A stretch of DNA of 12,369 nucleotides from Candidatus Wukongarchaeum yapensis (GTDB lineage: Archaea; Asgardarchaeota; Wukongarchaeia; Wukongarchaeales; Wukongarchaeaceae). The notes under the pieces are model-generated. The model worked only from the letters and a program-made list of their open reading frames with translations. It was not told where the DNA came from and did not search any database. Position 1 is the first letter of the stretch. Each line of letters starts with the position of its first letter. The position numbers were made by a program, and so were the translations under genes. The stretch covers positions 1-12,369 of the forward strand of contig JAEOSI010000044.1 in NCBI GenBank assembly GCA_016840425.1, written 5' to 3'. Shown here piece by piece: positions 400 through 6,100 of the stretch.

Positions 400-876
400 A
401 TGCAAGAAAAGCCAAAGTATTATAGTTTGTTTTTCGAGGTTTTTGTCCACGCTACTGAAGATTTAGAGAAGGTGAGAGAAGCTCTTCTCTTTATTTTGCC
501 TGAGGAGTACAGGGAAAGAGTTTCTATTAAAAATGAAATATTAGTCGGAAGTTGGGGTAACCAGATCATTGTTCTGAAATTGAAAGTTAAAGGCGAAGAC
601 CTTGTAAAAGAGACACTTTCTCGCATTTTTTCCAGTTTAAGCGCGGTAGAAAGGAAGGATATTCTATCAAGTCTTTTTAAACAAGTGGACGAAAAAGGTT
701 GTTTTTATTTACGTATAAGTAAGCAAAATGCTTGTTTGCAAAGAGTTTCCCTAGATCAGGAGGGAGGAATTATCCGGTGTATTTTTAAATTTAAAACCGG
801 TGTAGGTGAGAAAAAGTCAGAAGCTATAAGGTATTTAAAAGAAATGATTTCAACCATTGAGAATGAAATGTTATAA
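400..876 (+). CDS. DUF54/COG1325-family RNA-binding protein (exosome-superoperon associated)
   Basis: Motifs VFVHATEDLEKV, GSWGNQI and FYLRISKQ match the family HATED / GxxGNxI / YLRxxKQ pattern. It sits in its usual position immediately upstream of rnp3-rnp2. Confidence 0.85.
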   Translation: MQEKPKYYSLFFEVFVHATEDLEKVREALLFILPEEYRERVSIKNEILVGSWGNQIIVLKLKVKGEDLVKETLSRIFSSLSAVERKDILSSLFKQVDEKGCFYLRISKQNACLQRVSLDQEGGIIRCIFKFKTGVGEKKSEAIRYLKEMISTIENEML

Positions 877-929
877 AATAAGGTTTGGTTAAGTTTTTGT
901 GCAAGTAGTTCATGGGGCGGTCTTGTTTT

Positions 930-1649
930 ATGGGGAAGACTTTTATCGATCTTGGGATTTATCCTGGCGGGATGGAAAAGCCAGAAGTTGAAAAAGTTGT
1001 TATGCATGCTCGTAAGTTGGGCTATAGGAAGGTTTGTTTGGTTTTAAAGAGTTTTAAAGGTTTTAATTTTAGAGTGTTTGAGGGGTTAGGGATTGAGGTA
1101 ATACCGCGATTGGAGGTGGGTGGTAGTACTGTTAACGTGGTAAAAAAACAAGTGCTTAAGCGTGGTAATTTATGGCGTTCGGCTGTGTTTTCTGTTTTCG
1201 CGGAGAGTAAAAGGGTGGCTATGTGGGCTGCTCGTAATCGGTGGATTGATATTATTCGTGTGCCTGAATATTCTTTTAACAAGGTTATTGATTGGTCTGT
1301 GGCGAGATTGTTGACGAGTAATAATAAGGCTTTTGAACTTCAAACAGCCCCTATGCTGAGGGTTAGGGGGGTGGTCAGGTCTAAATTGTTGAAAAGTTTT
1401 TATGTTATGGTTAGACGCCTATTAAGAGCGAAAACTCCTGTAGTAGTTAGTAGTGGTGCAAATAGCGTTTTTGAGATGCGAACACCACAGGATACGGTGG
1501 CACTAGCAACGTTGGTAGGGTTACCTTTAGAAGAGGGCTTGAAAGGCGTGTCTATTACCCCTGAGAACATAGTTTTAAAAGTCTTTCAAAGAAAAATGTT
1601 AGCTGGTATTCCTGAAGGCGTAAAAATTGTTCAAAAAGAGGATGTTTAG
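930..1649 (+). CDS. rnp3: Ribonuclease P protein component 3 (Rpp30)
   Basis: MGKTFIDL start, WAARNRWIDII, PVVVSSGANSVFEMRTPQD and C-terminal IPEGVKIV are typical of archaeal Rpp30, and synteny agrees. ATG 930 has GGGGCGG 8 nt upstream; ATG 912 is the alternative start. Stop is TAG. Confidence 0.9.
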   Translation: MGKTFIDLGIYPGGMEKPEVEKVVMHARKLGYRKVCLVLKSFKGFNFRVFEGLGIEVIPRLEVGGSTVNVVKKQVLKRGNLWRSAVFSVFAESKRVAMWAARNRWIDIIRVPEYSFNKVIDWSVARLLTSNNKAFELQTAPMLRVRGVVRSKLLKSFYVMVRRLLRAKTPVVVSSGANSVFEMRTPQDTVALATLVGLPLEEGLKGVSITPENIVLKVFQRKMLAGIPEGVKIVQKEDV

Positions 1650-1673
1650 AGTATAAAAGGGTTTGAGATAGAA

Positions 1674-2039
1674 ATGGTTAAGGTTTTTAGGAACCGTTAC
1701 TTGGTTTTCAAGGTTTACACGGAAAAAGAGCCGGCATTGGATGAAGAAGATATCAAACAAACGCTTTTCAACACAGCAAGAACACTTTTTGGGGAGGCAT
1801 GGATGGCAAAACTTGACCTTCAACTAATAAATTTTAATCCCTCTACCCTTGAAGGCATTCTTAAATGCGGGCACAAAACAGTGACGGAGACCAGGGCAAT
1901 AATCGCCACAATAACTTCCCTTAAAAAAGAACCAGTAAGTCTCTATGTAAAAGGCGTTTCAGGAACATTAAAACGTGCAAGAAAAAAGTTCACAGAGAAA
2001 GAAGCAAGAGAAGACAACAACAGAAAGAAAGAAGCTTAA
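1674..2039 (+). CDS. rnp2: Ribonuclease P protein component 2 (Pop5/Rpp14 family)
   Basis: N-terminal RNRYLVFKV, LFGE, and C-terminal GVSGTLKRARKKF are Pop5 hallmarks; it follows rnp3. Confidence 0.92.
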   Translation: MVKVFRNRYLVFKVYTEKEPALDEEDIKQTLFNTARTLFGEAWMAKLDLQLINFNPSTLEGILKCGHKTVTETRAIIATITSLKKEPVSLYVKGVSGTLKRARKKFTEKEAREDNNRKKEA

Positions 2040-2048
2040 AAGTTTCAT

Positions 2049-2080
2049 AAAAAATCCTTTTCCCTCTTTTAAACAAGGGA
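2049..2080 (-). terminator. Possible hairpin + U6 terminator for minus-strand transcripts (GTPase mRNA or the small RNA)
   Basis: On the - strand: UCCCU-(10 nt)-AGGGA stem, then AAAGGAUUUUUU. Confidence 0.3.
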
Positions 2081-2095
2081 GTAGAGTTTTTAAAT

Positions 2096-2172
2096 GGGAG
2101 GATCATTTTGTCGCGATCATGGCATCGCCCTCCAGGAAGGGCTTCATCTGGAGCGGCAAAATCATATCCCCC
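2096..2172 (-). ncRNA. Candidate structured small RNA with a kink-turn (unknown class)
   Basis: GC-rich 77 nt in an AT-rich convergent intergenic gap. Stem GGGGGA/UCCUCC, 3-nt bulge UAU, tandem G.A pairs, U.U, then UUUUG/CAAAA, with inner stems CUCCAG/CUGGAG and GCGAU/AUCGC. A TATA-like element lies ~28 nt upstream on the - strand. Confidence 0.45.
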
Positions 2173-2192: not shown

Positions 2193-2208
2193 GAATATAA
2201 TCATTTCG
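2193..2208 (-). promoter_or_regulatory. Putative BRE/TATA for the candidate small RNA
   Basis: - strand CGAAATGA-TTATATTC. The first T of the TATA is 28 nt upstream of G2172, the 5' end of the terminal stem. Confidence 0.35.
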
Positions 2209-2233
2209 TTTTAGGTTTGTTTGAAGTCTAGTT

Positions 2234-2968
2234 TTAAAATGTTACAGCGGGGGGAGTTCTTTCCTCTCTTAAACGTTCTATTTCGAGAAGGATTTCTGTT
2301 GCTTGCTTTGCAAAAGGTTTTAGTTCAAAAGTTTGTGCATACCAGTCTGCAGATAAAACTCTCCTCCACTCTAACCATCTAAGCATCAACCTTGCTTTTT
2401 GAAGGGGAACGTTTAACTTTTGAGATATCTTTTCAAGAGAGTTTGGATTACCCCCTTCCTCTAAAATTACGCGTAAGACAGGAAGCATTCTTCTCAAAAT
2501 GGCAAGAGTTAACACTTTGAGCGCGCGTTCTATACCTTTACCTGTGGTTGCGCTTGTACCTATAATGAAGTAATCTTCTTTGGAGAAACCTGCGAGGCGA
2601 GCTGCTTCCTCTGGCGGTAGAGCTGAAGGGATATCTTGTTTGTTTGCCGCGATTATTATCGGCACGTTAGGTAGTGTGTTTTTTATCTCTGCAAACAAGG
2701 CTTGGGATTCATTTGCATAGGGTTTTGTAGAGTCTATTAGGAATAAAACGCCGTCTGCTCCTGTTGATAAAACCCTCCTCACCATATCGAACCGTTTTAA
2801 GCCAGGGGTCCCGAAAAGGAAAACACTCATGCTAAAAACTTCTGCGACTGCATAATCTAAAGCGACTGTGGTTCCTGCACGGTCTATTGATATACTTGAT
2901 CCTTCACTTACTTTACTTACAAAGGTTGATTTTCCTGAGTTGAAGGGCCCCATTACCAAGATCTTCAA
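2234..2968 (-). CDS. MglA/CvnD (COG2229)-like small GTPase with a C-terminal winged helix-turn-helix domain
   Basis: G1 GPFNSGKS, G2 TTVALDY, G3 FGTPG(L), G4 NKQD, G5 SAT. Residues ~163-220 (VLRVILEE...SLEKISQKLNVPLQKARLMLRWLEWRRVL) have a wHTH pattern. TTG start with AAGGAG 9 nt upstream. Confidence 0.88.
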   Translation of the reverse strand: MKILVMGPFNSGKSTFVSKVSEGSSISIDRAGTTVALDYAVAEVFSMSVFLFGTPGLKRFDMVRRVLSTGADGVLFLIDSTKPYANESQALFAEIKNTLPNVPIIIAANKQDIPSALPPEEAARLAGFSKEDYFIIGTSATTGKGIERALKVLTLAILRRMLPVLRVILEEGGNPNSLEKISQKLNVPLQKARLMLRWLEWRRVLSADWYAQTFELKPFAKQATEILLEIERLREERTPPAVTF

Positions 2969-3128: not shown

Positions 3129-6100
3129 TTAAGTTTTTATCGCTATTTTAATGGTTTTATCTTCGATTTTCCAGTTTTTTGTGTATGTTGTTTCAGCTGG
3201 TATCCCTACTTGTACACTGGTTGAGAGGGTTTCGTTGGCGACATATTTTTCATGTTTTTTCATGGAGTTTAGGAGTTCTTGGTCTTCTGTTTCATAGAAG
3301 AGGCTTATGGTTTGGGTGTATTCTAGGTCTAATTCTTTCCGCATTACTTGTACCCTTCTTATAAATTCTAGCATTAATCCTTCTTCTCTGAGTTCTGGGG
3401 TCATTTCTGTGTTAAGAATCATTAGCAGACTTCCTATTAAAGAGGCGACATATGGTGGTTTTTCTTTCTTTTCTGTATTCAAGTCTCCTCGTGTAAGTTC
3501 TACTTCTTCCCCGTCTATTTTCAGTTTAGCGCTTCCTTTTTCCTCTATTCTTCTTAGTAGCTCTAGAGAGTCTTGCTGCTGTAAAGTCTTACTTATTTTA
3601 GGTATTTTTTCTTTATATTTTGGTCCTAAGCGTTCATAATTTGGTTTTAAGATTATTTGACAATAGTTTTTATGTTCTTTAGGATCGATATATTTGACCT
3701 TTTTTACGTTTATTTCTTCAAGTAATAGCAATTCAAAAGGTTTTATTCTCGAAGCTTGTTTCTCTGTACACCCTATTATAAGCTCTTTTAACGGTTGTCG
3801 TGTCTTTATTTTTTTACTGGCACGCAGAGATCTTCCCGAGCTATTTACACCGATCACCAACTTCATACTTTCCTCAAGATCTTTATCGATATACTCTTCA
3901 ACAGAAGTCGGATAATCTGTCATATGTACGCTCAAAGGAGCTGTCTCTTCAATATGCCTAACAAGGTTTTGATACATGTCTTCAGTGATAAAGGAGGCGA
4001 AAGGTGCAAGAAGCTTTATTAAAGTAACTAAAACTTCATAAAGAGTCCAGAAAGCTGAAAGTTTATCCTCAGTAACCTCTGACTTCCAAAATCTTCGCCT
4101 AGATCTCCGAACATACCAATTACTCAGTTCATCCACAACAAATTCATCAAGATATCTTGCAGCTTTGTGAACATCGTAGGCATTAAGACCGCTTGTAACA
4201 TCTTTTATAAGAGTGTTTGCACTTGAGATGATCCAGCGGTCAAGAACGTCCCTTTTCTCTACAGGTAAGTATTGATTTTCCCTTGCTTTTACAGGGTTAA
4301 AGTTGTCTACATTAGCGTTTAAGACGAAGAAATGATACACGTTCCACAACGTTAAAAGGAACCGTTTTAAGGCGTCTTCTGAAGCTTTTAAATAGAAACG
4401 CTTATCCAGCCAAGGCGCGTTGGAAGCGAAAAGATACCACCGCATAGCGTCCGCTCCTGTGTTGTTTAAAATAATCCAAGGATCAACGATATTGCCCTTG
4501 CTTTTGCTCATCTTAACCCCTTTTTCATCAGTTACGAGGCCGAGGGTTAAAACGGATGTATAAGCAGGCTTGTTAAAAACTAAAGTACCTATCGCTAATA
4601 GTGTGTAGAACCATCCCCTAGTTTGATCCACTGCCTCCGTTATAAAACTTGCAGGAAACTGGCTTTCAAAAAGCTCCTTGTTCTCAAAGGGATAATGGTG
4701 TTGAGCAAAAGGAGCAGAACCACTATCATACCAACAATCAACGAGATAATTCTCTCTTATCATATCTCCTCCGCATTTTTTACAATCAAGAATTACCTCA
4801 TCTATCCACGGTTTGTGAAGCTCAAGATGGCCTGGAAGCTTTTTCGCTAAACTTTTAAGCTCTGATACACTTCCCAAACAAGTTCTTTCACCGCATTTTT
4901 CACACGTCCATATAGGCAAAGGTGTCCCCCAATACCTCTCCCTTGAAAGGGCCCAATCCCTTAAATTTTCTAAGAAGTTACCAAACCTCCCATGCTTGTA
5001 ATATTCTGGAAACCATTCTACCTGCCCATTGTTGTCGGTTAATTCTTCTTTTATTTTACTCATTTTCAAAAACCATGTCTCCCTCGCGATGTAAAGCAGG
5101 GGAGTGTCACACCTCCAACAAAAAGGATAATCGTGTTTATAAGTCCCGCTTTTGTAGAGGAGGTTTCTTTCTTCAAGCATCTCTATTATTTTCTTGTCCG
5201 CATCTTTTACGTACATGTCCGCAAAAGGTTCTACTTCTCCCACAAAGTTGCCTTTTTCATCCACAAGCTGAAGTAAAGGCAGGTCGTACTCTTGAGCTAG
5301 TTCATAATCTTCAGGACCGAAAGCTGGGGCCGTATGCACTATCCCTGTACCCTCTTCTAAGTCGACAAAATCGGCAAGGCATACGTAGTGGGCACGTTTT
5401 TCTAGCTTTTTAAAGGTGAAGAGGGGCTCATAACTCTTTCCTTCTAAATCTGCACCATAAAGTCTCTGAACAACTTTGTGTTCCCCTTCTATTACTCGGT
5501 CTACTAAAGCGCCAGCAAGTATGTATCGCTCTCCATTTGTTTCAACAACGGCATATAAGAAATCAGGATGTACTGCTAAAGCGACGTTACTTATAAGAGT
5601 CCAAGGCGTCGTTGTCCACGCCAAAAAATAAGTATTTTCTTCTCCCTCGACTTTGAACTTTATAAAGATGCTTGGATCCTCAGTTTCAGCACTACCCAAA
5701 GCAACCTCATGACTACTCAGAGAGGTTCCACATCGGGTACACCAAGGCACCACATAGTGACTCTTTACAAGCAATCCCTTATTCCATGACTGTTTCAAGC
5801 TCCACCAAACACTTTCTATATAATCATCATCCATCGTTATATACGGACCACCATGATAGCCGCTATCATCCCTCTCCATATCAAGCCAAAAACCAACTCT
5901 TTCCGTGGTCTTTTTCCATTCACTCTCATAACGAAGAACGCTTTCCCTACATTTCTCATTAAATTTCTCGATCCCGTACGCTTCTATATCCTTCTTAGTT
6001 TTTAGATTGAGCTCCTTTTCTACCTCAAGCTCAACGGGCAATCCATGACAGTCCCAGCCCCCTTTTCGTGGTACATAGTAGCCTTGCATTGTTTTAAAAC

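Follow-up and report, generated by a model that had tools for sequence, protein, structure and literature searches.

A candidate dual-guide box C/D sRNA gene next to the RNase P protein operon of Candidatus Wukongarchaeum yapensis

In the stretch of DNA analyzed here (the window, 12,369 nt), an unannotated interval lies between the gene of an MglA-like GTPase-winged helix protein (2234–2968, minus strand) and the 3' end of the PF01877-Rpp30-Pop5 operon (400–2039, plus strand). The question raised by this locus is whether the interval encodes an RNA and, if so, of which kind. A first-pass annotation had placed a 77-nt kink-turn RNA candidate with its own promoter there, and considered a C/D-like guide, a new class of sRNA, or an element in the 3'-UTR of the GTPase mRNA. 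The comparisons described below indicate that the locus is very probably an independent gene encoding a dual-guide box C/D sRNA, with the C/D-like guide as the local copy of a conserved RNA of this type. It is an RNA of a known kind in a new and somewhat aberrant copy, not a new RNA class.

The 77-nt sequence was found exactly at window positions 2172 to 2096 on the minus strand, as annotated (RNA position i corresponds to window position 2173 - i; table 1). The terminal kink-turn is also present as described, with a C-stem of 6 bp (RNA positions 1–6 with 71–76, one G.U), a 3-nt bulge, tandem G.A/A.G pairs and a U.U pair. The U-A pairs that had been thought to extend its non-canonical stem are lost in both relatives from the genus. 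Two G.U pairs, 3:74 and 36:41, are replaced by A-U and U-A in relatives; read from the plus strand, both would turn into A.C mismatches, so that the RNA is assigned to the minus strand. The plus-strand reading, which folds slightly better (z -2.8), was ruled out by the G.U pairs, the boxes and strand-specific model hits. Among the competing interior stems that had been proposed, the hairpin of RNA positions 31–46 stood, on the folds of the congeners and on compensation, and the other two turned out to consist of guide or box sequence. Within the hairpin a U.G pair changes to U-A among the congeners, and helix 2 has four pairs changed on both sides; other families have a short stem there, closing the C'/D' kink-turn, of which the hairpin is a longer version. 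A helix that would join the two spacers (RNA positions 16–20 with 59–63) was dropped, as a G-to-A change in the guide of family f4 breaks this helix and fits the rRNA target.

Table 1. Features of the sRNA locus (window coordinates).
Feature	Position	Strand	Evidence
Whole box C/D sRNA, 77 nt	2096..2172	-	covariance-model matches, including R2 at 81.5 bits (copy itself among the R2 input)
Terminal stem, 5' strand	2167..2172	-	pairs with 2097-2102; changes on both sides at 6/6 pairs; G.U to A-U in G001
Terminal stem, 3' strand	2097..2102	-	same pairwise covariation test
C box AUGAUUU, bulge before it	2159..2165	-	5/7 consensus positions, GA core intact
D' spacer, putative guide for the 23S P-loop (helix 80)	2147..2158	-	11 contiguous pairs, own LSU 2368-2378
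D'-like box	2144..2147	-	GA one base nearer the guide than in the family; aligned column UGAA; absent in G001
Internal hairpin between D' and C', 6 bp, 4-nt loop	2127..2142	-	minimum-energy fold of 3/3 congeners
C' box remnant, homologous position	2119..2125	-	GC in place of the family kink-turn GA (alignment A6); 12-nt spacer next
D spacer, putative guide for the 5' strand of 23S helix 89	2107..2118	-	9 contiguous pairs, own LSU 2580-2588
D box AUGA, GA core intact	2103..2106	-	3/4 consensus positions; family D box is NNGA
Promoter-like region	2194..2212	-	A-rich BRE-like block 2212-2204 and TATA-like box 2201-2194 (-29..-22)

An Rfam search, one of the checks proposed in the first-pass annotation, yielded no family at gathering score; nothing was found at this threshold on the window, and a permissive search gave hits at chance level only. 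The 16S and 23S rRNA of the same genome hold no Watson-Crick complement of at least 10 nt to the element, and rRNA targets emerged only when G.U pairs were allowed. A whole-genome target search with one mismatch gave a perfect 11-mer on contig C98, which lies antisense inside a coding ORF and was treated as a chance match. The proteins of a C/D RNP are encoded in the genome: fibrillarin (321 bits) and Nop (Nop5, 228 bits) are adjacent on contig C172, and there are two genes of the L7Ae family.

The element occurs in the same context in two further sequences of the genus, G001 and a contig labelled SMTZ1. Compared with SMTZ1, 74 of the 77 positions of the RNA are identical, while the flanks show 70/87 and 43/57 identities; this excess of the RNA over its flanks was counted as a sign of selection. 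Against G001 the values are 62/77 for the RNA and 71/87 and 44/57 for the flanks, the RNA being no better conserved than its surroundings. None of the 15 differences from G001 affects the hairpin stem, either spacer or the terminal GA cores, and the GA cores are invariant in both congeners. AUGA is found four times in the RNA (positions 8–11, 26–29, 53–56 and 67–70), as had been noted in reading these words as boxes C, D', C' and D. That reading is only half right, since the inner two do not stand at the homologous box positions, are at most partly homologous to the real boxes and are abolished by the differences in G001. Upstream, the DNA that separates the GTPase stop codon from the TATA-like box includes a 20-nt block rich in A and C (window 2204–2223, minus strand, -51..-32), which is invariant in all three congeners amid varying surroundings. 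It may serve as a BRE, as a promoter-proximal element or as a 3' signal of the GTPase gene.

Relatives outside the genus were collected with covariance models. A first model (R1), built from the three congeners only, found the RNA at full length in other Asgard families, once per genome (E values of 3e-5 to 6e-4 per genome). A second model (R2) was built from ten sequences found with R1, the window copy being among its input, and matched 82 of the 151 sampled Asgard genomes at E <= 0.01, with one match in each and 22 of the 27 families represented. In family f6 the RNA was not found with the model; with laxer filters its 31 genomes gave weak hits only (best E 0.008). An alignment of 40 homologues (A6) has a uniform order of parts: terminal stem, C box of RAUGAUG type, conserved spacer, D' box (CUGA in 22 of the 40), short loop or stem, C' box of RAUGAUGA type, second conserved spacer, NNGA D box and terminal stem. 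The Asgard homologues are textbook archaeal dual-guide box C/D sRNAs. The conservation and covariation in relatives that had been named as a check are both present, in these homologues and at the terminal stem, which covaries at 6/6 pairs among 25 distinct homologues; paired cells amount to 95%, compared with 35–55% when the partner strand is slid, in an alignment that was fitted to the model and is biased toward the structure. The deviating AUGAUUU-type C box of the window copy is also seen in homologues of family f4, whose other boxes are canonical. The window copy carries both guides in the order of the family, with the P-loop guide before D' and the helix 89 guide before D. A weaker model hit in family f9 (L182:1502–1579, genome G131) has the guides apparently swapped, with the P-loop guide before the D box and a helix-89-like guide ending in the D' position; there is no Pop5 gene within 1.5 kb of this hit.

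For the first spacer, a search of the rRNA for its complement had been suggested, and this leads to the P-loop of 23S rRNA once one G.U pair is allowed. The spacer forms 11 contiguous pairs with positions 2368–2378 of the 23S rRNA of the same genome (10 Watson-Crick and one G.U), a length that was reached anywhere in the 16S and 23S rRNA by 1 of 300 shuffled spacers. Across the family, the nucleotide that we take to be E. coli G2251 stands at N+5 in 37 of the 40 homologues, of which 33 have an NNGA box. This numbering is independently supported by the Rfam consensus sequences of SNORD31 and GlsR4, in which an identical guide precedes CUGA in the same register. For U31 and snR67 it is documented that they guide methylation of the counterpart of E. 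coli Gm2251, which is Gm2619 in yeast and Gm4166/4196 in human (PMC11121408; PMC3511168). In archaea, methylation of the G2251 equivalent was predicted in three of seven species (PMC4644070; alignment position G2520), and Gm was observed at this position in the M. acetivorans ribosome (PMC12605026). A review also equates Gm1950 of H. marismortui with Gm2251 (PMC11542601, Table 1); this equivalence was set aside, since Gm1950 corresponds to E. coli position 1909, in helix 69, according to the primary paper (PMC2584109).

The second spacer (12 nt) forms 9 contiguous pairs with LSU positions 2580–2588 of the same genome, on the 5' strand of helix 89, with LSU 2583 (E. coli U2460) at N+5. In this genome alone the match is not significant, as 31 of 300 shuffles reach 9 bp. 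Support for helix 89 as the probable target is comparative, and comes from guide-target compensation across genomes. Opposite E. coli position 2458, the guide has A in the nine genomes whose rRNA has U and G in the seven whose rRNA has C, with two wobble pairs and one mismatch completing the 19 genomes, which are related, so that the counts do not represent independent events. Further compensation, which involves helix 89 only, was found in G122 and G007.

The second guide had initially been assigned to the 5' strand of helix 93 (E. coli U2593), which has the GUCGYG core in common with that of helix 89. The commonest form of the guide makes 9–10 pairs with helix 93, U2593 stands at N+5 in 28 of the 40 homologues when these are scored against the helix 93 consensus, and helices 90–93 are a known methylation hotspot (PMC4644070). 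The assignment was replaced by helix 89 (U2460) after both sites had been compared in the 23S rRNA of each genome: among 14 related, and hence not independent, genomes the helix 89 pairing is longer in ten, equal in three (G023, G033 and G008) and shorter in one, so that it at least equals helix 93 in 13 of the 14. Moreover, C2591, the helix 93 partner of guide position N+3, never varies, and the A found at this guide position in nine genomes fits helix 89 only, as does the further compensation in G122 and G007. In the window genome helix 93, whose site lies at about LSU 2715, offers just seven pairs. Targeting of helix 93 in place of helix 89 is therefore improbable.

The neighborhood of the gene was compared across Asgard families. 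The proximity to RNase P protein genes that the first-pass annotation had pointed out recurs in many of these families, where Pop5 is adjacent; in most families the RNA comes immediately after Pop5, both being on one strand. In family f4 it lies behind IleRS, which is also the next gene beyond the GTPase gene in the window. In the order to which the genome belongs (own genome, G001, SMTZ1 and G002), the RNA gene lies in inverted orientation behind the GTPase gene, converging with Pop5. Linkage of the RNA to the PF01877-Rpp30-Pop5 operon was observed at window 400–2172 and at loci L116, L118, L143, L145, L148, L165, L166, L168, L170, L172 and L173.

The promoter that had been proposed for the RNA gained comparative support. 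In 29 of the 40 homologues a TATA-like hexamer starts at -36 to -24, and such hexamers peak in the -30..-25 bin across the family (28, compared with 1–9 in any other bin). The placement of the BRE/TATA-like elements is conserved in the three congeners. A run of at least four T within 20 nt downstream is found in 25 of the 40 homologues, and none was found within this distance in the genus. Between the 3' end of the RNA and the Pop5 stop codon, the window holds a 6-bp hairpin (2061–2080) and then a T6 run on the minus strand (about 2050–2055). The hairpin is kept in G001 and not in SMTZ1, and may be a terminator region common to both converging units.

Two of the readings first considered can be weighed against this evidence. 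The RNA lies 61 nt behind the GTPase stop codon, on the same strand and with no strong T-run in between, which would suit a structured 3'-UTR or terminator element of the GTPase-winged helix gene without a function in trans. Archaeal C/D sRNAs can also be excised from longer transcripts. Against such an element, the GTPase link is confined to this order: in most families the RNA exists without the GTPase gene, behind Pop5 or IleRS. A promoter-like box is conserved at -26, and the conserved parts are the guides complementary to rRNA, all of which makes a 3'-UTR element highly unlikely. That the RNA represents a new sRNA class, with a kink-turn bound by L7Ae and no relation to methylation guides, was suggested by boxes that depart from the consensus and by the missing Rfam match. 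This reading is scarcely credible, as the RNA is clearly homologous to dual-guide C/D sRNAs of canonical form whose rRNA targets are conserved; one of their relatives, Sac-sR110, has already been published.

The reading that best competes with an intact dual guide concerns the inner motif, which is degenerate in this genus. In its homologues the inner boxes are CUGA and RAUGAUGA, and the window copy deviates in both: at the position homologous to C', all three congeners have GC in place of the kink-turn GA, and the GA of D' lies one base nearer the guide than in the family. Neither inner box is present in G001. In the register aligned with the family, G2251 is at N+5 in the window copy, whereas reading the box as AUGA moves it to N+4; owing to the displaced GA, a strict count of N+5 from AUGA falls on G2252, across a U.G wobble. 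In the 23S rRNA of this genome the two guanosines are LSU 2371 and 2372. The predicted P-loop methylation may be reduced in this genus, may have moved to G2252, or may have given way to pairing alone. It is conceivable, though somewhat unlikely, that the RNA is a partly decayed guide which keeps the terminal C/D RNP and both rRNA pairings and has lost P-loop methylation with the broken C'/D' motif, acting as a single guide (U2460) and/or as a chaperone of rRNA folding independent of methylation. The state of both inner boxes in the three congeners is consistent with such decay, as is the confinement of the 15 G001 differences to regions outside the guides and terminal GA cores; a mismatch or wobble at the target position has also been treated as disabling (Sac sR13, PMC4644070). 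On the other hand, the P-loop guide is invariant over 10 nt in the three congeners, which argues that it is still used, and eukaryotic snoRNAs function with degenerate C'/D' boxes. With three close sequences, drift and selection are inseparable. Because the internal kink-turn is degenerate, methylation of U2460 by the D guide is the more secure of the two predictions. The degenerate C'/D' motif, the one-base shift of the D' GA and the inversion of the gene relative to the Pop5 operon are, in the sequences compared, peculiar to the genus.

Taking the dual-guide sRNA as the preferred interpretation, the following course of events is proposed. A BRE/TATA promoter of its own would drive minus-strand transcription of the RNA from position 2172 or close to it. 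The ends of the RNA would pair, and the C and D boxes would form a kink-turn that could be bound by L7Ae, then by Nop5 and fibrillarin. The spacer after the C box would pair with the 23S P-loop, where the register of the family would place G2251 under the methyltransferase, and the spacer before the D box would pair with the 5' strand of helix 89, presumably targeting U2460.

The closest published relative is Sac-sR110 of Sulfolobus acidocaldarius, which was detected by RNA-seq (Dennis et al. 2015, PMC4644070, supplementary file 1). Like the RNA described here, it is a dual guide, with a P-loop guide after the C box and the guide ...CGCGACGA... before the D box, in the same order. It differs in being shorter, at about 56 nt, in its canonical C and C' boxes and in the lack of an internal hairpin; it is listed without a predicted target (PMC4644070, supplement 1). 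Since Sac-sR110 belongs to a different archaeal phylum, the pair of guides is old. Other archaeal C/D sRNAs with a G2251 target share the class and the P-loop target, and have second guides directed elsewhere, e.g. to U2544, G2546 and G2490 (PMC4644070 and its numbering). A P-loop guide combined with a different second guide was also found in MAGs of Nitrososphaerota and Thermoplasmatota. One Nitrososphaerota MAG holds two near-identical C/D sRNAs (L194:1501–1565 and L195:1501–1565), each with a P-loop D' guide and an unrelated D guide. In Rfam, the canonical Asgard homologues align with sR38 (RF01121), sR44 (RF01129) and snoPyro_CD (RF00095) through the four boxes and their spacing (E down to 2e-4 in a short search, all below the gathering cut-off), and the guides are unlike. 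The window copy gave no hit to these three families.

In eukaryotes, SNORD31/U31, snR67 and AtsnoR35 (Rfam clan CL00053) and GlsR4 of Giardia (RF02473) have the same target nucleotide. The guide in the SNORD31 group directly follows the C box, with CUGA next, in the same register as in the Asgard homologues. The second guide of snR67 differs and targets U2724, and the RNAs of this group are often encoded in introns. With the SNORD31 model, a canonical Asgard homologue scored 12.7 bits against a cut-off of 40, and the window copy was not among the matches listed at E <= 10. At the P-loop, the RNA of the window would work like SNORD31/snR67, and these scores do not place it in that family. This likeness does not show common descent, since a shared guide is forced by a shared target. 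That the family of Sac-sR110 and the Asgard RNAs is the direct ancestor of the U31/snR67/GlsR4 clan, with the P-loop guide inherited vertically through Asgard archaea to the last eukaryotic common ancestor, is a speculative and rather unlikely proposition. If it were true, the copy in this genus, with its worn C'/D' motif, one dominant terminal kink-turn and internal hairpin, would show drift toward the asymmetric architecture of eukaryotes.

The results give a name and a predicted function to an unannotated gene that recurs beside the RNase P protein operon in Asgard genomes. The predicted targets, a guanosine of the P-loop and a uridine of helix 89, lie beside the peptidyl-transferase center, and methylation of the P-loop guanosine is known from bacteria and eukaryotes as well as from at least some archaea (M. 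acetivorans). The turnover of guide RNAs in archaea is usually rapid, with only about 17% of predicted sites common to the species studied (PMC4644070), and a guide RNA that retains both guides across phyla, and its neighborhood within Asgard archaea, is uncommon. The copy in the window is a natural experiment, with intact guides and a broken inner kink-turn, and could show whether an archaeal C/D RNP works asymmetrically, as eukaryotic ones do. None of these findings involves a new principle.

Further C/D sRNAs were sought in the genome by pattern. A strict double-guide C/D pattern gave no hits, a relaxed pattern gave 16 hits compared with 8 in a shuffled control, and a snoPyro_CD search of the genome found nothing; these scans say little about the number of C/D sRNAs in the genome. 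The best canonical-looking candidate in the crude pattern scan lies on contig C113 of G000 (3964–4037, minus strand), and combines the C box ATGATGA with the D box CTGA and a terminal stem of 10 bp.
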